In this document: positions 47,157 to 57,825 of the stretch, piece after piece
Layout of the letters: each line of letters starts with the position of its first letter
How positions within the stretch are numbered: the stretch's first letter is position 1
Source: Candidatus Saccharimonadales bacterium
GTDB lineage: Bacteria; Patescibacteriota; Saccharimonadia; Saccharimonadales; JAYRRP01
NCBI GenBank assembly: GCA_041910055.1
Contig: JAYRRP010000004.1
Location: 154,983-218,982, forward strand
Direction of reading: 5' to 3'
Length of the DNA: 64,000 nt
Translations under genes and position numbers: made by a program
Notes under the pieces: model-generated
What the model was told of the DNA's origin: nothing
Seen by the model: only the letters and a program-made list of their open reading frames with translations
Database searches by the model: none

Positions 47157-47341
47157 GGTTTCAGTATATCAAAATTAAAACACCTAGCTTGCGCTAAGTG
47201 CTTATGCTTGGCTCCGTCTAGTTGAAACATTGCGAACTAGTAGTGAGCAGTATGAGGATTATGAGTTTGATGACCTAGCTGCTACGGTTAGGCTGTATGA
47301 ACCAAGCCTAGCACTATCGTTTGGCGATGTGTAGGCAGCAA

Positions 47342-47794
47342 TTAGTCTTTAATAATTCCCGTCGCAATCAAAGTGTTACGAGTTGGCTCACTAAGACTTG
47401 CGTCTTTTAGCTCCTCAATCGAAAACCAGCGTGGCTGATACCAGTCGTCCTCAGTTTTCAGCACAACCTCATCAGCATTTTGGTCAAGGTCAATACGGTA
47501 ATTATAAAAGTCCATTTTTACAAATACTCGCTCGCCAGTATCTCGTAATGTTTTCTCGTGTTCGCCTGATGATTGGTATAGTTGCTTTACAGCAGCCTTG
47601 TTTATATCAATACCTGTTTCCTCAAGCATTTCACGGTGTAGTGCAATCTCTTTGGTTTCGCCCTCGTCAACACCGCCGCCTGGCACTACAAACGAACCCT
47701 CATATACTCCGCCTTTACGGTTCTTGCCCAGTAGTAACTTGCCGTCCTTTGAAAAAATAAAGCCGCCAACAATGTCTCGGTGTATGGTTCTCAT
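47342..47794 (-). CDS. Nudix hydrolase
   Basis: Nudix box GGGVDEGETKEIALHREMLEETGI. Confidence 0.85.
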   Translation of the reverse strand: MRTIHRDIVGGFIFSKDGKLLLGKNRKGGVYEGSFVVPGGGVDEGETKEIALHREMLEETGIDINKAAVKQLYQSSGEHEKTLRDTGERVFVKMDFYNYRIDLDQNADEVVLKTEDDWYQPRWFSIEELKDASLSEPTRNTLIATGIIKD

Positions 47795-47920
47795 AATCTA
47801 ATAATAACCTATCATTGCTTGTCAACAAGGCGGGGGTAGTCCCCTTTACCTCTCACAAAATACACTCCGCCGTATGAATGCCGAATTTTTGGGGGTAGAA
47901 TGACCAAGCGTTTTTTGGTG

Positions 47921-48148
47921 CTAAATATCCTTGAACAAATCGGCAACATTGACCTTGAGGCTATTTGCGATTTTATTCAAAGTACCGAGCCTAGCCCAGC
48001 GTTTGCCAGTTTCTATATAGGCAATAGCCACTACGCTCATACCTATGTTCTCAGCTAATTCCTGTTGCGTAACGCCCTTGCTCTTACGCACCTCTGCCAC
48101 TCGCTTACCAAAGGCTTTCATCAATTTCTGTTCTGGTGCATTTGTCAT
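47921..48148 (-). CDS. XRE-family helix-turn-helix regulator
   Basis: FGKRVAEVRKSKGVTQQELAENIGMSVVAIAYIETGKR is a classic HTH_3 sequence. Confidence 0.85.
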   Translation of the reverse strand: MTNAPEQKLMKAFGKRVAEVRKSKGVTQQELAENIGMSVVAIAYIETGKRWARLGTLNKIANSLKVNVADLFKDI

Positions 48149-48261
48149 ACACCTAGCGTAAAAATTATAAACAGATAGTTACATAAACTAACTGTTTATT
48201 TTTGTTACTCAATGTTATATATTTACAGGGACAACTTAAACAAGGAGTATAGGTAAGGAAA

Positions 48262-48825
48262 ATGGCAGAAAAGAAACGAAATTGGTTTGCTCGCCACAAG
48301 GTGCTAACCGTAATAGGGGTTATCGTTTTGCTGGCAATTATCGGCGGTGCTGCTGGCGGCGGTAACAAATCTACAACTAACTCAAGCGGTAGCAAAGACA
48401 CAAAAACCCAGGCTAAAGCTGAGACGGCTAAAGTCGGACAAGCCGCCAACGACGGTAAGTTCGAGTTTACAGTTACCAGTGTTGAGTGCGGCAAAGCCTC
48501 TGTTGGTGCTAACCAGTACCTAACCAAGACGGCTCAAGGGCAATACTGCCTACTTAACGTATCGGTCAAGAACATTGGCGACCAGGCTCAAAGTCTCGTT
48601 TCTAGCAACCAATATCTGCTTAATGCCAGTGGTCAAAAGTATTCGGCTGATGATACAGCTACACTTTACAATGCCCCGAACGGCACAAGCTGGTATAACG
48701 ATATAAACCCAGGTAACAGCGTAACTGGTGCTATCGTCTTTGATATACCAAAAGACCAGACACCTGCAACGGCTGAACTGCACGACAGTGCCTTTTCAGG
48801 CGGCGTAAAAGTCAACTTACAGTAA
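48262..48825 (+). CDS. DUF4352-type membrane-anchored extracellular protein
   Basis: It has an N-terminal TM helix and a Ser/Thr/Lys linker. The Ig-like domain carries FEFTVTSVEC...QYCLLNVSVKNIG...GAIVFDIP. Confidence 0.7.
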   Translation: MAEKKRNWFARHKVLTVIGVIVLLAIIGGAAGGGNKSTTNSSGSKDTKTQAKAETAKVGQAANDGKFEFTVTSVECGKASVGANQYLTKTAQGQYCLLNVSVKNIGDQAQSLVSSNQYLLNASGQKYSADDTATLYNAPNGTSWYNDINPGNSVTGAIVFDIPKDQTPATAELHDSAFSGGVKVNLQ

Positions 48826-48841
48826 AGTAAACTGACGCGAT

Positions 48842-48870
48842 AAAAAAGGGGCTATCACAGCCTCTTTTTT
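48842..48870. terminator. bidirectional rho-independent terminator
   Basis: AAAAAAGGGGCTatcacAGCCTCTTTTTT lies between convergent genes. Confidence 0.7.
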
Positions 48871-49195
48871 ATGCCCACTTGCGATTACGGTTTTTCGCCT
48901 CTTTATCGGCAACCGCCTGCCACATATCTACACCTGTCAAGCTGGCAAGTCCAAGCAAAACTATCTGCACATCAGCTAATTCCTCTGCAAGCTCCGTTTG
49001 CTTAGTCGTGTCTGTGAACTTTAAGCCAATAGTCTTACGAACGGCTTTAGCCAACTCGCCAACTTCCTCCATCAACATAACCAACTTTTTACTTGCGTCC
49101 TCGGTATTAAAGCCACGTTCAATGTTCATCTGCCAAACATATTCTTGTAGCTTTTTAAGTGTAATATCGTCTGCTATTGGGTTTTTATCATTCAT
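48869..49195 (-). CDS. MazG-like nucleotide pyrophosphohydrolase
   Basis: [12 protein letters not shown] and [15 protein letters not shown] are MazG EExxE/D motifs. The start at 49195 overlaps the upstream gene's stop. Confidence 0.8.
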
Positions 49196-49754
49196 TGTCG
49201 TCCTCAACTTTCTGTATGCTGGCAATATCGTCGGGCAGTAGTCTAACGTGTTCGTTACGATAAACAATTCCAGCCGCCCCAGTGTTTACCCACCTCAATA
49301 CAGCCTCATCGTCATCAAAGTAATCAGTTAAGTGCTTTTGTCCAGATTTGAGTGTTATTAAGTATCGCTTTGGTTTTTCAATAACATCTTTCAGCTTATC
49401 CAGTATGTCTTGCGTAAATGGTTCATCAAGGTCGCCACTGTCAACCCACTCGTAATACTCTAATTCGCACTGGTTATCGTCAAGTGGCTTGAGCGTATAT
49501 TTAACGTGATAATTGTCGTCTTTTTTGCTCATAACGAACATAATGCCAGGCTCATAAGCGGTTATTTCGTATTCGTTCCACTTACCGTCGCTGCCTTGAT
49601 TTTTATAGATTGTGCCAAGTTTTGTCGGGCTTTCGTTAGTCTGCTCTTTAACAATGCCATCAATCCACTTTGGCGTGTTTTCGGGATTGAGGCTAAAATC
49701 AAAAACCTCGTGTGCTGCTCGATTGATTTTAATGGTTAGCTTTACGTCTTTCAT
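49188..49754 (-). CDS. SRPBCC-superfamily (polyketide-cyclase/START-like) protein with ~50-aa C-terminal extension
   Basis: The N-terminal ~135 aa has the pattern [21 protein letters not shown]...YEITAYEP...VKYTLKP. Assignment by eye. Confidence 0.5.
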
Positions 49755-49759
49755 AGTGC

Positions 49760-50152
49760 TTACATACTCGCCAGGACGATTGCCTCTTTAATCTCTTTTT
49801 CAATGCTGTCGGCATATTGCTCAAGCTCATCGGCAGTGACCCAGGCAAACTCTTGGTGTTCGTCGCTCAAGACAACCTGATTAGATTTTGTTTGGCAGAA
49901 AAAGAACAGTGCTACGATATGCTTTAGCTCGCCCTCTGGCTTAGCAAACCACTCATCAACGTGTATTACTTTGCCAATTTCAAGGTCGGTAATTCCAGTT
50001 TCCTCTTTAGTCTCACGCCGTAAGCCGTCCTCTAGCTTTTCGCCTTTTTCAAGCCGACCACCAACAGCTTGCCAACGTTCGCCCTCTCGGACAATTAAGA
50101 ACTTGCCGTCTTGATTTTGGATTACTGCTTTTACAGCTACTTGCGTGTCCAT
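49760..50152 (-). CDS. Nudix hydrolase
   Basis: Nudix box [24 protein letters not shown]. Confidence 0.85.
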
Positions 50153-50796
50153 TATGTTAGCTCCCCTATACTTGATATGCTTTTGGCATTTTCTGCCAAG
50201 AATTGCTCTCTGGTTACTAAACCAGTTTCAACACCAAGAAAACTAAATCCAGCACCGATAGCTGCTTTCATATCGTGCAAACCGTCGCCGATATAAACAA
50301 CCTCGTCTGGGCGTATTTGTTGCTCACTAAGCCACTCTAAGGCAGGGTCAAAAACTCTTGGGTCGGGTTTGTGAAATGGCGTATCGTCAGCGGTTTGTGT
50401 GTAATCTAGTAAGTCTCTCGGCACTTTATGTAACGTCAGGTCGTGTTCAAAGCTGAAACGGCTTGTCGCAGTGATAATACCTATGAGCTTTCCAGCAGCC
50501 TTGATATGACGCAGCGTTGGTATAGTTGCAGTAAACAGTTCCTTTGGAAAGCCTTCGTGAGTAGCAGTATTGTGTGCCATTGCTTGTTCGACATCATCTG
50601 TTCCATATAGTAAACAGACAAGCTCCCTCAATGGCTTGCCCCAATGCTCTTTTATTTCATCGTCAGTTAATTCTTTGCCGTAAAAAGTACGTGCTACGTG
50701 TTTGTGCTGTTCCCATTTAGTTCCGATTGTGCCGACCAGAGTATCATCGTGGTCGAACAAAACGACTTTTATATTTTCTGCAATATGCTCACTCAT
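50152..50796 (-). CDS. HAD-superfamily phosphatase
   Basis: Motif I is VLFDHDDTLV and motif IV is YIGDGLHDMKAA. I chose the start at 50796 (AAAGGA SD); the longer track ORF overlaps the upstream gene. Confidence 0.8.
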   Translation of the reverse strand: MSEHIAENIKVVLFDHDDTLVGTIGTKWEQHKHVARTFYGKELTDDEIKEHWGKPLRELVCLLYGTDDVEQAMAHNTATHEGFPKELFTATIPTLRHIKAAGKLIGIITATSRFSFEHDLTLHKVPRDLLDYTQTADDTPFHKPDPRVFDPALEWLSEQQIRPDEVVYIGDGLHDMKAAIGAGFSFLGVETGLVTREQFLAENAKSISSIGELT

Positions 50797-50812
50797 CAAT
50801 AATCCTTTCAGG

Positions 50813-52210
50813 TCACCCTTTGTCATAACCCTTGAACCACCCTTTTTTCTCTGCCTGTTCATAGGGCAGCATTGTCCTACCAGCATAGGTAATGCTGTCG
50901 GCTTTGCCGTTGCTGCCAAAACTAAATACTACTGTTTCGCCTGGCGAGCTGTAATTGTTAGCCTTTTCAATTTTAAGCGTACTGTCATCTATAACAGTTA
51001 ATTCCTCTGCGTCCTCAAACTCCGTCCACCAAAGTGGGTCCACTGCAAATAACTTTTTACCAACGACCACAATATCAGTTGGTCCCCAAGTAGAGTAAAA
51101 TCGTCCTGCAAATCTGTTATGGTCAGCAACTTTGGACTTAATATGGTCAGTGTCTTGCTGGAAAGTGTCAACTATATTGATTAAGCTACTACATACCTTT
51201 TTTGCTGGACCGTTATAAGCGTTTGTCAAAACAGTAACTACCAGTTTTCTTTTAGCGTCAAATTGCGTGTTAGTGATAAAGCCTGGAAACCCGCCGCTAT
51301 GACCGTAAATGGTCCAGCCTTTCTTTTGGTAATTAACAAAGCCTAAACCGTAGCGTTCATTTTTGTCTGCTTTCCAATAGCCGTGTTGCATTTGCCGCTT
51401 TGCCTTATCACTAAGCAAGGTATCGTTGCCCAAAAAATGTGCAGCGAAATAGCTACATACGTCCTCAGCATTGCTGTAAAAGCCAGTAGCTGACGATAAT
51501 GCCCGTGTGTCTATGTGGTCAAATTGCCTACGGCTCTCGTTAAACAGCTCGATACCGTAGCCATTAGCCAGCTTATCCTTTGCCTTACTATCCAAATCGG
51601 GACCAGTTGAGCTTAGATTAAGTCGCTCAACTATATTCTTAGTCACATATTCACGGTAAGGCATACCGCTTACAGCCTCGACAACAAAGCCTAGATACCC
51701 GAAAGCAAAGTTAGAGTATTTAAACTGTTCATCAGAGGCGTATATTAGCTTGCTTTGTGCAATAAACTCTTTAAGCTCGCTCTCGTCAGGGAATGGACGT
51801 AAAAGCTGCCAAAAATCAGAGTTTGTACCATCACGAATTACGCCAGCCGTGTGGTTAAGTAGTTGTCGAACGGTTACTTGGCTTATTCGTTCGTCCTTTG
51901 ATGATTTAAACCATTCAACGTGCTGACTGACTGTATCATCTAGGCTTAACTTGCCACTCTCAACCAACTGCATAATCGCAGTTGAGGTAAAGGTTTTTGA
52001 GTGCGAGGCAATTCTAAAAATATGGTCTTTGGTCAGCTTGGTCTTGGTTTTTAGGTCAGCGTGACCAAAGGGGCGTGAGTAGATTAGCTTATCGCCGTGT
52101 TGTATAGCTACCTGAATTGCAGGAATACGGGAATTATCAAAGTTAAGTTCAAGCCAGGTATCAATATAATTTACGGCTGCTTGCAATTTATCGGGGTTAA
52201 GGCTGTCCAT
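50813..52210 (-). CDS. beta-lactamase-fold serine hydrolase (class C / PBP4*-like family)
   Basis: It has the SxxK motif (ASHSKTFT) and the YSN motif (FKYSNFAF), and is 465 aa with a C-terminal beta-rich extension. Confidence 0.8.
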   Translation of the reverse strand: MDSLNPDKLQAAVNYIDTWLELNFDNSRIPAIQVAIQHGDKLIYSRPFGHADLKTKTKLTKDHIFRIASHSKTFTSTAIMQLVESGKLSLDDTVSQHVEWFKSSKDERISQVTVRQLLNHTAGVIRDGTNSDFWQLLRPFPDESELKEFIAQSKLIYASDEQFKYSNFAFGYLGFVVEAVSGMPYREYVTKNIVERLNLSSTGPDLDSKAKDKLANGYGIELFNESRRQFDHIDTRALSSATGFYSNAEDVCSYFAAHFLGNDTLLSDKAKRQMQHGYWKADKNERYGLGFVNYQKKGWTIYGHSGGFPGFITNTQFDAKRKLVVTVLTNAYNGPAKKVCSSLINIVDTFQQDTDHIKSKVADHNRFAGRFYSTWGPTDIVVVGKKLFAVDPLWWTEFEDAEELTVIDDSTLKIEKANNYSSPGETVVFSFGSNGKADSITYAGRTMLPYEQAEKKGWFKGYDKG

Positions 52211-52215
52211 AACTG

Positions 52216-52398
52216 TTATTTTTGCTCCATTAACTTTAGTAAATCCGCCTTTTTGTAGCGTCGCAATTTGCGTTCGCCAATGCGGATAGCTTTAAGTGTG
52301 CCGTTCTTGTCCCAATTTCTGAGCGTGTTCGGGTGCACTTGCAGTAGCTCGCAAGCCTGTTTCAGTGTTAGTAATTCTGGCAAATCTTTCTGTGACAT
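52216..52398 (-). CDS. excisionase-family / MerR-type HTH DNA-binding protein (60 aa)
   Basis: LLTLKQACELLQVHPNTLRNWDKNGTLKAIRIGERKLRRYKKADL matches the excisionase-type HTH_17 pattern. Confidence 0.8.
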   Translation of the reverse strand: MSQKDLPELLTLKQACELLQVHPNTLRNWDKNGTLKAIRIGERKLRRYKKADLLKLMEQK

Positions 52399-52469
52399 AT
52401 AACCTCACAATTGATACTATTATCATACAAGAGTGTAAGCAACTGCGGTAGTGCGGTTTTGGTAAAGAT

Positions 52470-53675
52470 GTGATGAAAAAAGACGACAAACAGCCAGATA
52501 AGCCTAAGAAAAAGCCGCTGAAAAAAGCGGTTAGTAAATCGTCGGCAAACAAAAAGCCTAAACAGCAAGACGATAAGCCGATTGAGATTATCCTACCTGT
52601 TAAACCCAGACACACCCTGAACCTTGACGCTAAGAAATATAGAGACAGCCTCTCAGTTGACGAGTGGCTAGAATTATCCGAAAAAGACCCCAACCTACTT
52701 ACCCCTACTCAAGCAAGGCAGCTTGCAGAGGCAAACAAGCAAGCTACTGAAATAGCTAAGCGTATAACAGAGATGTACGAGTTTAAGGGTATTGCTGCTA
52801 TGTTCAAGACCATAGACACACTACCGATTGCTCGTGTTATGCAGCAAGCCCAAGAAACGGCTCTGGTCCTAAGCAAGTTCCAAAACAATCTCATATTGCC
52901 AACCATACCGACCCAGCAGCTTGTAACCTTTCAGCAAAACCTAGCCATTACAACAGGTGTCATCAATCAGTCATTTATCGCTGCTATCAATGCAGCTAAT
53001 ATAACTCGCAACCTATTTGCTGATATGCAGCGTGTCAGCGACATAATTATCAAGGGTCTAAGCATTGACCTTACCTCGCTTAGTAAAAGCCTGTCACGCT
53101 TTACGGCAATAGAAACGATTGACCTTGACGTAATTGAGGTTATTGACCGTGACGGCAACATAGCGATTGTCAGCGATACGAGCCAGACAAAGCGAATTGA
53201 TGATGACTACCAGTATGTCAGCACGGCAAAGTTCGACCTGTTGCTTACTGAAATACGGTCAAGCCGCCAAGAGTTAGCAGAATTAAAACAACTGGTTAAG
53301 GGTCAGCTACCGAGCGGGATTACAAAAATTACTTACGCTGACATAAAATTTATGATTGAAAGCTCAAAGCTGATACTAAAAGGACACGAGATTGACGTGC
53401 GTCGTAGTTCCAAGCAAGCCAAATTCTGTGACTTTTTCTTTAGCTCGATAGATAACTTCGTTAAAAAGTGGGACGTTTCACATCTTATGGAACGAGTTTT
53501 TATAATGCACGTTGGCACTGACGGTAATGAGGATAGCTTTAATAACATCATCAAAGGCTATGTAACCGAGCTTAACAAAAAGATAGCAATCGCCACAAAA
53601 GGTCAGCTAATAGACTTTTTCATTCTTTTGAATTATGAGGTTTACATAAACCCAAAATATATTTCTCATCTGTAA
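52470..53675 (+). CDS. hypothetical protein (401 aa) with Lys-rich N-terminus
   Basis: A long ORF divergent from the HTH gene. No domain recognised. Confidence 0.55.
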   Translation: MMKKDDKQPDKPKKKPLKKAVSKSSANKKPKQQDDKPIEIILPVKPRHTLNLDAKKYRDSLSVDEWLELSEKDPNLLTPTQARQLAEANKQATEIAKRITEMYEFKGIAAMFKTIDTLPIARVMQQAQETALVLSKFQNNLILPTIPTQQLVTFQQNLAITTGVINQSFIAAINAANITRNLFADMQRVSDIIIKGLSIDLTSLSKSLSRFTAIETIDLDVIEVIDRDGNIAIVSDTSQTKRIDDDYQYVSTAKFDLLLTEIRSSRQELAELKQLVKGQLPSGITKITYADIKFMIESSKLILKGHEIDVRRSSKQAKFCDFFFSSIDNFVKKWDVSHLMERVFIMHVGTDGNEDSFNNIIKGYVTELNKKIAIATKGQLIDFFILLNYEVYINPKYISHL

Positions 53676-53734
53676 AAATGTAGTTATCCACCAGTTTAAA
53701 CTCGGTTAAATACCTGGTCTGTCGTAATGGCTAT

Positions 53735-53926
53735 ATGCAGCAGCAAAGTAGCCAACAACCCAAAATCGTCACTCTGCAAGACTTTATTGCCGAGCTAGGT
53801 CGAGACGACGTTGCAACCGCCAATTTGGTCGGTTACTTTGACGTGCTGATTGAAATGGACCTTGAACTTAAAGAGCAAGAAAGGATTGATGAAAATGAGC
53901 GACGAAAGCAAACAAGCGATAGCTGA
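53735..53926 (+). CDS. small hypothetical protein (63 aa)
   Basis: An ORF in the element's plus-strand module, assigned on coding potential only. Confidence 0.35.
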   Translation: MQQQSSQQPKIVTLQDFIAELGRDDVATANLVGYFDVLIEMDLELKEQERIDENERRKQTSDS

Positions 53927-54197
53927 CACGGTTTTAGCCTGGTGCAACGAGTGCCGACTACACGCCGCAATGCTGATAATTTGGAACGCTGAATTAAGCG
54001 AGATTGAGCAGATTGTTAAAGAGGCAGAGGGTTACTTGCCAGCCATTATCGGTAGCCAGGCAACCTCTAACCATATAAGGTCGCTAATCTGCGACCTTGA
54101 CCATAAGCAAATGAGAGCAATACGGGCTTATATCAGCCTACTGCTTGAGGGACCGTGTAAAACGCCAGAATGCCAAGAGGATTGCAATGTTAATTAA
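53895..54197 (+). CDS. hypothetical protein (100 aa, Cys-containing)
   Basis: An AAGGAT SD lies 8 nt upstream of ATG 53895. No homology recognised. Confidence 0.4.
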   Translation: MSDESKQAIADTVLAWCNECRLHAAMLIIWNAELSEIEQIVKEAEGYLPAIIGSQATSNHIRSLICDLDHKQMRAIRAYISLLLEGPCKTPECQEDCNVN

Positions 54198-54531
54198 CGA
54201 GGTAAACATAGTGCCAGTAAAGCCAAATAACGGCTTGGTAGCGTTTGCTAGTGTGGTCCTTGATGAAAGCCTGTATCTCGGCTCTATTGGCGTTCATAGC
54301 CGCCTAGACGGCTCATATAGGATTACCTACCCGACTAAAAAGCTCGGCAGTAAGGAACTGAACCTATACCACCCAATTAACCGAGACTTTGGCAAGCAGA
54401 TTGAACAGGCGGTTGTTGCCAAGTGCGAGCAACTTTTTAAAGGACGTGATGACTATGATAGACACAATAAAGCTAGTGATAAAAATGGACAAGCCACTAC
54501 ACTCACGAGCCAACTTTCAACCGACGCTTGA
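54187..54531 (+). CDS. SpoVG-like protein
   Basis: VNIVPVKPNNGLVAFASVVLDESLYLGSIGVHSRLDGSYRITYPTKK...YHPINRDFGKQIEQAVV parallels the SpoVG fold signature. Confidence 0.65.
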   Translation: MLINEVNIVPVKPNNGLVAFASVVLDESLYLGSIGVHSRLDGSYRITYPTKKLGSKELNLYHPINRDFGKQIEQAVVAKCEQLFKGRDDYDRHNKASDKNGQATTLTSQLSTDA

Positions 54532-55576
54532 TAGCATAAACCCTGACTACTTTGGCTATTTCAAGGCAAATGCTAATCCGTCAGCGGCTACCAAAAAGCT
54601 CGGCAAGTATCAGCCACGTCTTACCTATACTCAACGACCCAGAGGTTATAAGCGAGCTGCCTATGAGCTTGCGATTGAGCTTTCATTGCCAAAGATAGCG
54701 TTCGGTAATAACTTTGATGAGCTAACTGACGCTGATTACGGCTTAGTCGTTCGGCAGCTACAAGATACGCTAAGAGAAATGGGCGTTTGGCTGTTCACGA
54801 AACAGATTGAAAATGCAGAGGTACGAGCGTTGCATTACAGTAAGAACTTTGTGTTTAAGGATTACACGTCCTGCTCGGCTGTGCTGCAAATGCTACGCAC
54901 CGCCGACATTAGCAAGCGTTATGACGTGCAAGACACCAACTTTCGCAATGGCGGCTATGTTCTACACGTACACACAAACTCGCTCGACATTGCGATTTAC
55001 GATAAGCTGGCAGACTTACGACAAGCCAAAACAAGCGAAAAACGCTCGCAAGAGAAAGACAACTTTGTGCAGCTTGACTTGCTTGACCAGTTGGCACGAC
55101 AGCAACCGACTGCGGTAATGCGGTATGAGGTAAGGCTTAACGGTAAACGAAAGACCACTGACGCTTTGGCAGCCATTGGCTTTGCTAAGCCGCTGACTTT
55201 TCAAAATGTTTTCTCTACCGAACTTTCCAAAGCCTTGCTGCAAGACCATTGGCAGAACTTTTTTAGCACCCTGCCAAAGTTGGCACTAGACACTGACGAC
55301 CCAGACAAGCTGCTCGCTAACATATTGCAGTCAGCAGACGTAAAAGGTCCGTCGCAAGCTGCCGCTAGGCTCGGTATGATGTTGCTACTTACAAAGAGCG
55401 AGCAACGCCACGTTAGGGCAATGTTTGAGGACCGCTTTGGCAAACACGCTTGGTCACGTCTCAAGCCGCTTACTAAACCGCCACACAAGGTCCAATACAA
55501 AACTATACTAGGCATTAACCAAATGCTTGAGCAGTTTGAACCAACCAAAATGGACCAGATTAAAGGTCATCTATAA
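54449..55576 (+). CDS. rolling-circle replication initiator (phage/plasmid gene II/X or Rep_trans-like)
   Basis: The N-terminus is MIDTIKL, LPKIAFGNNF is present, and the IAIYDK ... MRYEVRL pattern is typical of this Rep group. The start is 54449 or 54455. Confidence 0.55.
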   Translation: MTMIDTIKLVIKMDKPLHSRANFQPTLDSINPDYFGYFKANANPSAATKKLGKYQPRLTYTQRPRGYKRAAYELAIELSLPKIAFGNNFDELTDADYGLVVRQLQDTLREMGVWLFTKQIENAEVRALHYSKNFVFKDYTSCSAVLQMLRTADISKRYDVQDTNFRNGGYVLHVHTNSLDIAIYDKLADLRQAKTSEKRSQEKDNFVQLDLLDQLARQQPTAVMRYEVRLNGKRKTTDALAAIGFAKPLTFQNVFSTELSKALLQDHWQNFFSTLPKLALDTDDPDKLLANILQSADVKGPSQAAARLGMMLLLTKSEQRHVRAMFEDRFGKHAWSRLKPLTKPPHKVQYKTILGINQMLEQFEPTKMDQIKGHL

Positions 55577-55627
55577 TTGTTACTTATTGTTATATAATGG
55601 TATATACTACCAGAGAAAGGATTTACT

Positions 55628-57148
55628 ATGAAAACTAAGGCATTTTTGATAGCAAGGGTCTCTGACCCAGAGCAAAGACAAGCGTTACCTGCACAGGTTT
55701 TACGCCTCGAAAAATACGGTAAAGACAAAGATTACGACTATGAGCTGTTTGAGTTTGATGAAAGTGCATACAAGGACAACCGCAAGACATTTGGCAACAT
55801 TGTAAAAAGTATCCAGGCCTACCCTAACGAGTGTATTGTTGTCTTTGACAAAATTGACCGCTACACGAGGGACAGTTCAGCCGATGAGGTAAAAATACTC
55901 AATAAGCTCCGAGAGGACGGTAAAATCGAGATACATTTTCCGTCAGACAATTTATGCGTCACTAAAAACTCTGGTGCTCCTGACCTATTTAGGCTTGGTA
56001 TTGGCGTGGCACTTGCTCGCTACTACTCGGACAGCATTAGGGATAATGTTAAGCGACGGTTTGAGCAAAAGCTCAATGACGGCGAGTGGCCTGGTAAAGC
56101 ACCGATTGGCTTTGTGAACCATAGAATTAGCGACAAAGAAACCACTGTGTTGATAGACCAAGAGCGAGCTGGCTACATCAAAAAAGCCTTTGAGCTGCGA
56201 CTTGTTGGCACTCCGTTCAGAGGTATAGCTGCACAACTTAAAGCCGACGGCTTGCGTAACAATACGGCTAAACGCACGGCAATTGGTCAGAGTTATGTCG
56301 AGCAAATCCTGAAAAACCCGTTTTATTACGGTGTTATGCGGTATAACGGCAAGCTATACCCTCACAAATACGAGCCAATTATCAGTCGTAAGATGTTTGA
56401 TAAGGTCCAGGCTGTTAATGAGCAGCGTGGCACAAACCGAACAAAAAAGCAGTCCATAGACTACACCTTTAACGGTCTGCTCAAATGCGGTAGCTGCGGT
56501 TGTAGCGTATCGTCTTACACTGCTAAGGGTAATGTATATATGCAGTGCAGTAAGGGCAAAGGTCCGTGCAAGCAGATACACATCAAAGAAAAGGACCTTG
56601 TGCCACAGGTTGCCGAGCTTGTCGGCAAACTAGAAATGAACGAGGACATAATAAACTATGTGATTGACGAGCTGCGTAAGCACCACGATAACCAACAGCT
56701 TTACTATGCCAATGCCATTGAGCAAACCCGTTCAGAATACGACACGATACAGAAAAAGCTCGGTATTTTGTATGAGGATAGGCTCGACGGGCGTATTACT
56801 CTCAATGACTATGACGAATATGTTAAGGACCTAAAGGCTCGCCAAGAGCAGTTAGACGACCAGCTCGTTAATTTGACCCATAATGATAAAAGTTTTCTAT
56901 TGACCAGTTCGTATCTGTTAGAGATAGCTACAAAAGCCCCTAAACTGTTCCAAAGTTCGAAAGCGGCTCTAAAATCCAAGCTTTTACGCTTTCTACTTTC
57001 GAACCTCGTAATTCAGGACAAAAAGCTCGTTTTCAATCTAAAAGCACCCTTTGATGTAATCTCAGAGTGCTCTCAAAATCAAACTTGGCTCCGGGGAAAG
57101 GATTCGAACCTTCGACCTAGTGGTTACACTGATTCACCATTTTCATGA
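55628..57148 (+). CDS. large serine recombinase
   Basis: Features are the catalytic region LIARVSDPEQ, DRYTRD, the recombinase domain (GKAPIGF, KNPFYYG), a Zn-ribbon (CGSCGCSVS...CSKGKGPC) and a coiled-coil tail. The last ~21 codons (LRGKDSNLRPSGY...) are the antisense reading of the tRNA-Asn 3' exon. Confidence 0.9.
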   Translation: MKTKAFLIARVSDPEQRQALPAQVLRLEKYGKDKDYDYELFEFDESAYKDNRKTFGNIVKSIQAYPNECIVVFDKIDRYTRDSSADEVKILNKLREDGKIEIHFPSDNLCVTKNSGAPDLFRLGIGVALARYYSDSIRDNVKRRFEQKLNDGEWPGKAPIGFVNHRISDKETTVLIDQERAGYIKKAFELRLVGTPFRGIAAQLKADGLRNNTAKRTAIGQSYVEQILKNPFYYGVMRYNGKLYPHKYEPIISRKMFDKVQAVNEQRGTNRTKKQSIDYTFNGLLKCGSCGCSVSSYTAKGNVYMQCSKGKGPCKQIHIKEKDLVPQVAELVGKLEMNEDIINYVIDELRKHHDNQQLYYANAIEQTRSEYDTIQKKLGILYEDRLDGRITLNDYDEYVKDLKARQEQLDDQLVNLTHNDKSFLLTSSYLLEIATKAPKLFQSSKAALKSKLLRFLLSNLVIQDKKLVFNLKAPFDVISECSQNQTWLRGKDSNLRPSGYTDSPFS

Positions 57149-57670
57149 TGCGTGGACTATCTCATCATCCGACAATTGCCGGATGCAGGGCGCTATTTGA
57201 ACGATTATTGTTAGGCTCACGTTCTAGTCTCTGAACCTTCCAGACTCCTTTATCCTAAGTCTGGCTTGGCTGCGGATTACCATATCTTACGACGTAGGTT
57301 TCCCGCAATTCACCCTGTTTTCACTACTTGATTACCCAAGTAGGCTGCTTGTAGCCTGCATGAATTTCTCTATGACAATTTGCACATAGCAAGACACATT
57401 TATCTGCCTCGGCTTTATTCTTTTCCCACGAGCGAGTCAATCCGCTTGATGAGATACCAAAGTCTTTAGTTGTTGCGTCTTTGTGATGCAAATCTAGTGC
57501 ATCAATGCATAAGTTATATCCGCATAGTTCACAGCTGCCACCCTTGTAGGCAACAATCATCTGACGCATTTTCTTGCGGCGTTTCGCAACTGCCATTTTT
57601 AGATATTCAGCACGATCGGCATACGTACGGTTATCTGGCATACATATTATTGTATACCACGTGTCACCGA
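57127..57670 (-). ncRNA. group I intron (IC3-like core) in the tRNA-Asn anticodon loop
   Basis: The classical conserved elements are on the minus strand: P AATTGCGGGAAACC (57297-57310), Q AATCCGCAGCC (57268-57278), R GGTTCAGAGACTAGAAC (57221-57237) and S GAGATAGTCCAC (57152-57163). P/Q pair as UGCGG/CCGCA and R/S as GACUA/UAGUC. Splice junctions are ambiguous by 1 nt. Confidence 0.8.
57324..57641 (-). CDS. HNH homing endonuclease encoded inside the group I intron
   Basis: CELCGYN...LDLHHKD...LLCANCHREIH is an HNH/Zn-finger signature. The ORF sits between the 5' splice site and the P3-P9 ribozyme core. Confidence 0.8.
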   Translation of the reverse strand: MPDNRTYADRAEYLKMAVAKRRKKMRQMIVAYKGGSCELCGYNLCIDALDLHHKDATTKDFGISSSGLTRSWEKNKAEADKCVLLCANCHREIHAGYKQPTWVIK

Positions 57671-57825
57671 ACAGCCACCCGCTCTACCGCTGAGCTACCC
57701 CGGAATATTAATATTACTTTACTCCGTGAGAAACGTTGAACCCCTCAGGAATAACAGCTGTATTCTAGCGGCTTCATTATCATATGTAAATGACAGAAGG
57801 GAAAGAATAACAAATAGATTCTTTA

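Follow-up and report, generated by a model that had tools for sequence, protein, structure and literature searches.

Two pieces of a tRNA lie 544 nt apart on the minus strand of the window (the whole stretch of DNA that was analysed, 64,000 nucleotides), and the locus raises the question of which tRNA they encode, what separates them, and where exactly they are joined. The minus strand from 57704 to 57086 holds a tRNA-Asn(GUU) gene interrupted by a 544-nt group I intron, with the following parts:

57671..57704, minus strand: 5' exon of tRNA-Asn(GUU), nucleotides 1-35 (34 nt, without nucleotide 17), ending C32-U33-G34-U35
57127..57670, minus strand: group I intron, 544 nt, between U35 and U36; first base U57670, last base omega-G57127
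57086..57126, minus strand: 3' exon of tRNA-Asn, from U36 through the encoded CCA end, with discriminator G73

When joined, the exons form a 75-nt RNA that ARAGORN calls tRNA-Asn(gtt), with the anticodon loop CUGUUAA, and the exon coordinates, the gap, and the loop proposed in an earlier sequence-only reading of this DNA were all borne out. The 5' exon is identical (34/34 nt) to that of the Saccharimonadia tRNA-Asn of GCA_016700375.1 (PMC13011429 Table S3) and of loci L098 and L101. The UCC...GGA-G-CCA ends are common to the window exons and to intron-less Patescibacteria tRNA-Asn genes (L022, L069, and L085); an intron-less tRNA-Asn gene would read, for example, ...GGTGGCTGTTAACCACT.... We are highly confident that the locus is an interrupted chromosomal tRNA-Asn(GUU) gene of Saccharibacteria (Patescibacteria), with a self-splicing group I intron at U35/U36 and an HNH gene in the P1 loop.

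The intron was scanned with the Rfam model RF00028 (Intron_gpI), which matched 57401..57134 on the minus strand over the full model (positions 1-253) with 88 bits and an E value of 4e-21, against a gathering cut-off of 50 bits. The helices of the catalytic core (57135..57317) are as follows:

57317-57311/57192-57186, minus strand: P3, covaries
57307-57302/57276-57271, minus strand: P4, covaries
57299-57297/57281-57279 and 57293-57291/57286-57284, minus strand: P5
57269-57268/57237-57236 and 57264-57258/57246-57240, minus strand: P6, covaries
57231 and 57229-57225/57159-57154, minus strand: P7, essentially invariant
57185-57178/57173-57166, minus strand: P8, covaries
57150-57145/57140-57135, minus strand: P9, covaries

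The P, Q, R, and S strings and the hairpins CCAGACU/AGUCUGG (P6) and CAUCCG/CGGAUG (P8) picked out by the sequence-only reading are present, and P4, P6, P7, and P8 had been named correctly. Pairing was measured in 55 related cores, using a structure-naive MAFFT alignment that had not been fitted to the structure. In this alignment, 86.6% of cells were paired, versus 35-44% with slid partners; both sides had changed in 47 of the 61 pairs, and the covariation score was 0.533 versus about 0.1. Ahead of the core lies a P2 hairpin; in relatives it is capped by GNRA-type loops, and each of its eight pairs (8/8) shows changes in both strands. The elements that define the two splice sites are given together with it:

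57343..57348, minus strand: internal guide sequence GCAGCC, the 3' strand of P1, pairing with exon G30-U35
57324..57343, minus strand: P2 hairpin, CUACUUGG (57343-57336), GUAA loop, UCAAGUAG (57331-57324)
57127..57153, minus strand: 3' splice-site definition, P9.0; A57153-C57152 pair with G57129-U57128, followed by omega-G57127

P1 is formed by the exon sequence GGCUGU (57676-57671) and GCAGCC (57348-57343), about 320 nt downstream, which places a wobble between G57348 and U35 (U57671) at the 5' splice site. None of the cores departs from the guide GCAGC (55/55 carry it), which lies 32-34 nt ahead of P3. In relatives that have the same 5' exon but lack the ORF, these two strands form a contiguous hairpin, GGCUGU-CAAAG-GCAGCC. 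The core of P1, CUGU/GCAG, is invariant and thus offers no covariation evidence for itself or for the U.G wobble. Between the guide and exon positions 30/31 no covariation was found, exons CGCUGU, CCCUGU, and GACUGU all facing GCAGC(U/C); these positions vary uncompensated, so the conserved P1 is limited to 4-5 bp, CUGU/GCAG(C). By inspection, no convincing P10 was found, as the 3' exon UAAC has no complement in the bases that precede the guide G (ACAA in the window; in relatives, mostly AC, AA, or GU). Near the intron 5' end there is a conserved (G)ACAC motif, which may pair with the 3' splice-site sequence GUG↓U (arrow, splice site).

Across 73 related loci the 5' exon always ends in ...CUGU, while the first intron base is variable. 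The relatives show no variation in G↓UAA at the 3' splice site, nor in omega-G57127, and both P9.0 positions are paired in 47/55 sequences, through six dinucleotide combinations. Taken together, the relatives, the covariation of P9.0, and the invariant guide place the intron unambiguously at 57670..57127, between U35 and U36. The earlier identification of G57127 as omega-G was therefore correct, being fixed by P9.0 and by its invariance. The 1-nt ambiguity that had been noted at the junction is gone; it arose only because the window intron happens to begin with U. Most relatives' introns begin with A or G, and U36 must thus belong to the 3' exon. More generally, P9.0 and the guide sequence provide rules by which splice junctions can be placed from sequence alone.

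The ambiguity had come with a different P1, the local hairpin UGUU-cggu-GACA, and an intron between U36 and A37 as in Azoarcus and Agrobacterium, with U57126 as its last base. The string is present, the window sequence allows this hairpin with a U36.G57665 wobble, and related introns repeatedly have the (G)ACAC motif close to their 5' end; however, this placement requires an omega that is not G, several relatives would be left with a 2-nt hairpin loop (for example, CUGU↓CGACAC and CUGU↓GAACAC), and the predominance of A and G at the intron start leaves only the 3' exon as a source of U36. The ORF-less relatives have no local hairpin, and their exon pairs directly with GCAGC. The local hairpin was consequently rejected as P1 on the intron starts of the relatives and the contiguous P1 of the ORF-less ones, and we consider a U36/A37 insertion extremely improbable. 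For the window copy, insertion at U36/A37 or at U35/U36 would yield the identical spliced product.

The U35/U36 placement also bears on the identity of the host tRNA. Default tRNA finders overlook the split gene, and ARAGORN with its intron option reports tRNA-Thr(UGU) in the window, as it does in roughly half of the relatives, with the intron between positions 33 and 34 (57672..57129) and G57129 as omega-G. That register likewise has a U before the 5' site and a G before the 3' site, but the position of G57129 (-3) is occupied by any of G, A, U, or C in the relatives and that of G57127 by G throughout, and the guide G57348 partners U35 rather than U33. P9.0 would be paired in 2/55 sequences, versus 47/55 in the Asn register, and on this ground the 33/34 placement was rejected. 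In addition, the exons match intron-less tRNA-Asn genes, G73 and U1-A72 included, and the same miscall has been documented and refuted by sequencing of the spliced product for an intron 89.7% identical (PMC13011429). A tRNA-Thr host is thus scarcely credible. Since default finders miss the tRNA-Asn gene and intron-aware ones call it tRNA-Thr, such genomes appear to lack tRNA-Asn, and this apparent absence distorts completeness estimates.

The locus, including its ORF, recurs with 99.9-100% identity in 13 independent metagenome contigs, and the closest loci are those of Candidatus Saccharibacteria metagenome-assembled genomes. Together with the identity of the 5' exon to that of a Saccharimonadia genome, these similarities indicate that the intron host belongs to the Patescibacteria.

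It had been proposed that this could be a new insertion site; however, both the intron class and the site are already known. Williams 2020 (10.1101/2020.01.27.920355) already lists tRNA-Asn introns inserted at 35/36, a class that according to PMC13011429 was called "Asn.4Ug." Nakagawa, Amikura, Omae, and Suzuki subsequently described 35/36 introns in Patescibacteria tRNA-Asn(GUU) (preprint 10.1101/2025.07.03.662931; mSystems 2026, PMC13011429). In that work, the intron of GCA_016700035.1 self-spliced in vitro at 35/36, as confirmed by sequencing of the product, an omega-G-to-C mutation blocked ligation, and four tRNA-Asn introns carried HNH genes. The window core is identical to the GCA_016700035.1 intron at 192 of 214 positions (89.7%), and the corresponding values for three Saccharimonadia introns of PMC13011429 Table S3, taken together, are 89.7%, 88.8%, and 81.1%. 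The published introns share with the window the host tRNA, the insertion site, the phylum, the class (Saccharimonadia), and the ARAGORN miscall as tRNA-Thr(UGU) at 33/34, and we find no difference in kind between them. The tested GCA_016700035.1 intron has no ORF and a 5-nt P1 loop, in contrast to the loop of about 310 nt in the window. By analogy with this fellow intron, the window copy would be expected to be catalytically active. The terms "internal guide," "wobble," and "free-standing" do not occur in the main text of PMC13011429. With the class published and biochemically validated, the discovery value of the present locus is small, and its practical use lies in annotation.

Between P7 and P3' the window carries an insertion of 32 nt with a covarying 5-bp stem:

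57199..57224, minus strand: extra hairpin, P7.1-like, between P7 and P3'; stem GAACG/CGUUC, conserved 16-nt loop UGAGCCUAACAAUAAU

Among relatives, the stem appears as AACG/CGUU, AGAG/CUCU, CAAG/CUUG, and UAGG/CCUA. In the Michel-Westhof scheme, IC3 introns lack P7.1/P7.2 and any other peripheral helix between P7 and P3'. The covarying hairpin thus leaves the IC3 label given to this core by the sequence-only reading unsupported. The published subgroup models assign 25/28 of the 35/36 introns to IA, and none of the Patescibacteria tRNA introns to IC (PMC13011429). Subgroup IA has P7.1/P7.2; the window has a P7.1-like element, as a single hairpin rather than two; most other family members have two at this position, and the tested GCA_016700035.1 intron shares the single-stem variant. 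The loop of the hairpin may contact the loop of P6 (57257-57254 with 57215-57212). Classes sorted by hand look compensatory (CCU:AGG, CCC:GGG, CUU:AAG, and CCA:UGG), with a CCGAA class uncompensated, and the window and the tested intron differ by a matched AGG->GGG / CCU->CCC change. Shuffling between sequences gave no signal for this L6-L7.1 pairing (2.28 versus 2.31), with P6-loop extraction being unreliable. These comparisons suggest a possible loop-loop contact in the single-hairpin variant.

The classical IC3 tRNA introns are those of Anabaena/Nostoc tRNA-Leu(UAA) at 34/35, Azoarcus tRNA-Ile(CAU) and Agrobacterium tRNA-Arg(CCU) at 36/37, and cyanobacterial tRNA-fMet at 33/34. The window intron shares with them a short P1 built from anticodon-loop and stem bases, but differs in its 35/36 position, its extra P7-P3' hairpin, and its published assignment to IA.

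The sequence-only reading had overlooked an ORF within the intron:

57324..57641, minus strand: predicted HNH homing-endonuclease ORF, 105 aa, within the P1 loop

The last nine codons of the ORF, stop included, double as the 3' strand of P1 and as P2, and its stop codon UAG forms the final three bases of P2. Since P1 is contiguous in relatives that have the identical 5' exon and no ORF, the ORF sits in L1. PHROG HNH families match it with an E value of 3e-28, whereas the Pfam HNH family PF01844 stays under its cut-off (15.7 versus 21.4 bits); Pfam alone could thus not have named the ORF, which was identified by PHROGs and by conserved motifs. The pattern CxxC...HH...CxNCH...H is invariant (C37, C40, H52, H53, C86, N88, C89, H90, and H94) and comprises the catalytic and zinc-binding residues. 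The best sequence match with a solved structure is 6me0_C, the HNH domain of a group II intron maturase (E = 4e-6). The AlphaFold model (pLDDT, 86.9) has strand-strand-helix elements, and its top Foldseek hits in the PDB are all HNH nucleases, with weak E values of 0.07-1. Motif, zinc-binding cysteines, and predicted beta-beta-alpha-metal fold together indicate that the ORF encodes an HNH endonuclease. Its dN/dS of 0.03-0.05 points to strong purifying selection. Members of this HNH family also occur free-standing next to tRNA-Asn genes.

HNH-encoding group I introns are known from phages, in which the I-HmuI (SPO1) and I-TwoI (Twort) introns, of subgroup IA2, lie in protein-coding genes and encode larger enzymes with extra DNA-binding modules. 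Compared by description, the window intron shares with these a P7.1/P7.2-type periphery and an HNH-family endonuclease, and differs in its cellular tRNA host and its minimal 105-aa HNH protein. It also differs from the introns of tRNA-fMet and tRNA-Arg(CCU), which carry PD-(D/E)XK and LAGLIDADG endonucleases, respectively (PMC13011429).

The state of the ORF and of the core also speaks to whether the intron is a dead remnant, its ribozyme, its ORF, or both being non-functional and tRNA-Asn being supplied by another gene copy. Homing-endonuclease genes often decay once an intron is fixed, and the present analysis covers 64 kb of the genome and draws on sequence only; however, the window copy has lost none of the 36 invariant core positions and none of the helices, its ORF is intact and has a low dN/dS, and near-complete identity is kept across independent samples. 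No second tRNA-Asn gene was found in the 64-kb window by tRNA-finder and Rfam scans. In such Saccharimonadia genomes the split gene is the sole tRNA-Asn, and intron-bearing and intron-less copies of one tRNA seldom coexist (PMC13011429). We consider a dead remnant very unlikely.

For an active intron, splicing would begin with transcription of a 619-nt precursor, in which P1, with its U35.G wobble, would form from exon G30-U35 and the guide GCAGCC, which lies about 320 nt downstream. The P3-P9 core would then fold, and an external guanosine would attack after U35. P9.0 would next put omega-G57127 into the G-binding site, and exon ligation would produce the loop CUGUUAA. Most probably, the HNH protein cleaves intron-less tRNA-Asn genes near the insertion site, with repair copying the intron in (homing), as judged from the intron position and the selection on the ORF.

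At least 541 species-representative genomes contain the HNH family, compared with 4 cases reported from complete genomes, and it is found in three arrangements: in the P1 loop of the intron, free-standing by a tRNA gene with an ORF-less intron, and free-standing by an intron-less tRNA-Asn gene. Its spread, purifying selection, and free-standing copies are relevant to the way in which introns acquire homing-endonuclease genes and to intron mobility in ultra-small bacteria. We offer only tentatively, and as rather doubtful, the idea that the gene is a phylum-wide, tRNA-Asn-linked element kept by selection, beyond an occasional intron passenger. If so, the endonuclease would target the tRNA-Asn gene irrespective of the intron and would have entered the P1 loop secondarily, as in the "collaborative homing" proposal for phages, and the mobility of the introns would exceed what has been concluded in print, namely "limited horizontal transfer."

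In the surroundings of the split gene, a promoter-like site 5' of the tRNA scored no better than chance expectation. At the other end, a 9.9-kb island is integrated at the 3' end of the split tRNA-Asn.

The sequence-only reading had proposed that a tRNA-Asn gene in the window is split by a group I intron, and this was borne out, with every string it quoted found in the DNA. Joined, the exons give a 75-nt RNA that folds as a canonical cloverleaf with the anticodon loop CUGUUAA and that ARAGORN calls as tRNA-Asn(gtt), and the 544 nt between them match the full Rfam Intron_gpI model at 88 bits (cut-off, 50 bits; E = 4e-21). The split tRNA-Asn was not detected by default ARAGORN or the Rfam tRNA model, the sole call in the window being a tRNA-Ser elsewhere. 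On 13 metagenome contigs, the tRNA, intron, and upstream genes are 99.9 to 100% identical to the window, and an identical HNH protein is encoded. The intron-split tRNA-Asn is real, and its anatomy, correct in outline in the earlier reading, is now fully resolved:

57704..57671, minus strand: tRNA-Asn 5' exon, joined with 57126..57086
57670..57127, minus strand: intron, at position 35/36
57641..57324, minus strand: HNH open reading frame (ORF) of 105 aa, in the intron
57348-57343, minus strand: internal guide sequence (GCAGCC), the 3' strand of P1, pairing with exon G30-U35 (57676-57671)
57126..57086, minus strand: tRNA-Asn 3' exon, with discriminator G73 and encoded CCA
55628-57148, plus strand: large serine recombinase (Resolvase, Recombinase, and Zn_ribbon_recom; PHROG integrase, 2e-69)

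The splice junctions were placed by comparison with related loci. Across 73 loci the 5' exon finishes in ...CUGU and is followed by an intron beginning with A, G, or U; G|UAA stands at every 3' junction, with a variable base at -3. Furthermore, a 2-bp P9.0 joins AC (57153-57152, just after P7') to GU (57129-57128, just before the terminal G), and it pairs in 47 of 55 aligned related ribozyme cores through six combinations (AC/GU, AU/AU, AA/UU, GC/GC, UC/GA, and GU/AC). The variable first intron base, the constancy of G|UAA, and the P9.0 register thus place the intron at position 35/36. The 1-nt ambiguity suggested earlier does not hold, as a cut after U36 is impossible in most relatives and is possible in the window only because its intron happens to begin with U. 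With introns enabled, ARAGORN instead reads the host as tRNA-Thr(tgt) and shifts the intron two bases upstream; a tRNA-Thr 33/34 miscall is documented in PMC13011429. P9.0 pairs in only 2/55 cores in the register this call requires, and the tRNA-Thr host is excluded on that ground. A (G)ACAC motif 5 to 9 nt into the intron (57661-57665 in the window) recurs in relatives and is complementary to GUG|U spanning the 3' splice site (57126-57129), with longer matches in some relatives (CACUU/AAGUG). Such a pairing would compete with P9.0.

The hairpin previously taken as P1, UGUU-cggu-GACA, is not P1; instead, the guide GCAGC, invariant in 55/55 cores and located 32 to 34 nt before P3, pairs with the exon, with G57348 opposite U35. 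In ORF-less metagenomic relatives with a 5' exon identical to that of the window and cores ~83% identical, P1 is a contiguous hairpin (GGCUGU-CAAAG-GCAGCC), and therefore the window ORF, which the earlier reading had missed, sits in the P1 loop. Its final codons, AAG CAG CCU ACU UGG GUA AUC AAG UAG, double as the P1 3' strand and the whole of P2. Exon positions 30 and 31 vary with no compensating change in the guide, and the conserved part of P1 is only 4 to 5 bp; no convincing P10 pairing was found. In many relatives (L014, L039, L049, L071, L077, and others), the HNH ORF does not end in P2 and continues via J2/3, P3, and P4. These read-through ORFs have conserved C-terminal tails, such as ...VEKRGELREA, that are simply a translation of the ribozyme core, a region that is thus dual-coding.

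The ribozyme structure was derived by hand for the window and mapped onto a MAFFT alignment of the 55 cores. Pairing occurs in 86.6% of cells, versus 35 to 44% with partners slid by 1 to 3 columns, both sides change at 47/61 pairs, and the covariation score is 0.533 versus ~0.1 in controls. P2, P3, P4, P6, P8, and P9 covary, P7 is invariant, and the window retains all invariant core positions. Between P7 and P3', a 32-nt insertion folds into a 5-bp stem (57224-57220 / 57203-57199) capped by a conserved 16-nt loop; this stem covaries among relatives, and the wider family mostly has two hairpins at the position, with none in seven sequences. In the Michel-Westhof scheme, an element between P7 and P3' (P7.1/P7.2) is a hallmark of subgroup IA and is absent in IC3. 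The "IC3" label first given to the intron is therefore unsupported, as the element is present and the published class assignment is IA: 25/28 introns at 35/36 were classed IA, and no Patescibacteria tRNA introns were classed IC (PMC13011429).

The core variant of the window, with a single P7.1 stem and the loop GUGAGYCYAACAAUAAU, is carried in metagenomes mostly by ORF-less introns of 210 to 260 nt at tRNA-Phe(GAA) 33/34 (L088-L167; e.g., L088, L091, L097, and L109), and therefore close ribozyme relatives occupy different sites in different tRNAs. A candidate L6-L7.1 loop-loop contact pairs UAGG (57254-57257) with CCUA (57212-57215). Relatives show the matched classes CCU:AGG, CCC:GGG, CUU:AAG, and CCA:UGG, as well as a CCGAA class without compensation, and an automated shuffle test of the pairing was negative. 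These patterns suggest a possible, not established, tertiary contact.

The insertion site, thought at first to be possibly new, is already described and validated. Classes of tRNA introns grew from 4 to 21 in Williams (2020, bioRxiv 10.1101/2020.01.27.920355), of which 'Asn.4Ug' is, as cited by Nakagawa et al. (PMC13011429), the 35/36 site. Nakagawa, Amikura, Omae, and Suzuki (preprint, July 2025; mSystems 2026, PMC13011429) reported 35/36 group I introns in 15 tRNA-Asn(GUU) and 3 tRNA-Asp(GUC) genes across 95 complete Patescibacteria genomes, with HNH genes in four tRNA-Asn introns. One intron, given in their Table S3 as from GCA_016700035.1 (Saccharimonadia), self-spliced precisely in vitro, the product being sequenced, and an omega-G-to-C mutant lost exon ligation. 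The window core is 89.7% identical to it (192/214) and has the same P2 and the same P7.1 variant with a single stem; at L6/L7.1, the tested intron has GGG and CCC in place of the AGG and CCU of the window. The window intron is thus one more member of this known class. What interest remains concerns how widely the HNH gene family is spread and how its genes are arranged.

This analysis shows the fold, the junctions, and homology to an active ribozyme, from which we infer catalysis by the window copy. P1 would form across the ORF, guanosine would attack after U35, omega-G would dock with the aid of P9.0, and the exons would be ligated. Intron-less tRNA-Asn genes are the probable target of the HNH enzyme, which presumably promotes homing into them.

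The ORF has >1,100 homologues of about equal length, with invariant CxxC, HH, and CxNCH...H residues, and matches PHROG HNH-endonuclease families (E = 3e-28). Its best solved-structure sequence match is 6me0_C, the HNH domain of a group II intron maturase (E = 4e-6). Pfam HNH scores the window protein at 15.7 bits, under the 21.4 cut-off, and matches weakly in 21/21 aligned members. The AlphaFold model is confident (pLDDT 86.9), and its top structural matches are all HNH nucleases, with weak E-values. Comparison with its two closest homologues gives a dN/dS of 0.03 to 0.05, with synonymous sites saturated; the gene is maintained. Scanning genomes with the HNH alignment yielded at least 541 loci; among the matches listed, Candidatus Saccharibacteria MAGs rank closest, and nearly all others are Patescibacteria. 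In ~62 of the best 80 of these loci, the ORF lies inside an intron at the same tRNA-Asn site.

Free-standing homologues also occur, beside intron-less tRNA-Asn (L022, L060, L069, and L085), in some cases 20 to 120 nt from the intact gene, and beside tRNAs with ORF-less group I introns (L016, L026, L030, L067, and L079). In these copies the C-terminal Gln-Pro/Leu codons (CAG-CYN), the source of the guide sequence, are absent; free-standing HNH genes did not come up in a term search of the main text of PMC13011429. At some HNH loci (L017, L044, L046, L061, and L079), ARAGORN calls split tRNAs as His(GUG; putative), Tyr(GUA), or Asp(GUC), whose anticodons share G34-U35 with Asn. This would fit an element requiring the exon sequence CUGU.

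Finally, a 9,867-bp island (47217..57083) is integrated right at the 3' terminus of the split tRNA-Asn gene, flanked by the 10-bp direct repeat CGGAGCCAAG (47207-47216 and 57084-57093), of which 8 nt form the end of the tRNA and the other two are AG. The island is missing from metagenome contigs L001-L005, which are otherwise 99.9% identical to the window. The recombinase ORF runs on past the island boundary at 57083 and ends within sequence antisense to the tRNA and intron, so that chromosomal DNA supplies its final ~21 codons when the island is integrated. The island also carries an excisionase-like gene (HTH_17) and, as cargo, two NUDIX proteins, a HAD hydrolase, and SRPBCC, beta-lactamase-family, DUF4352, and SpoVG-like proteins.
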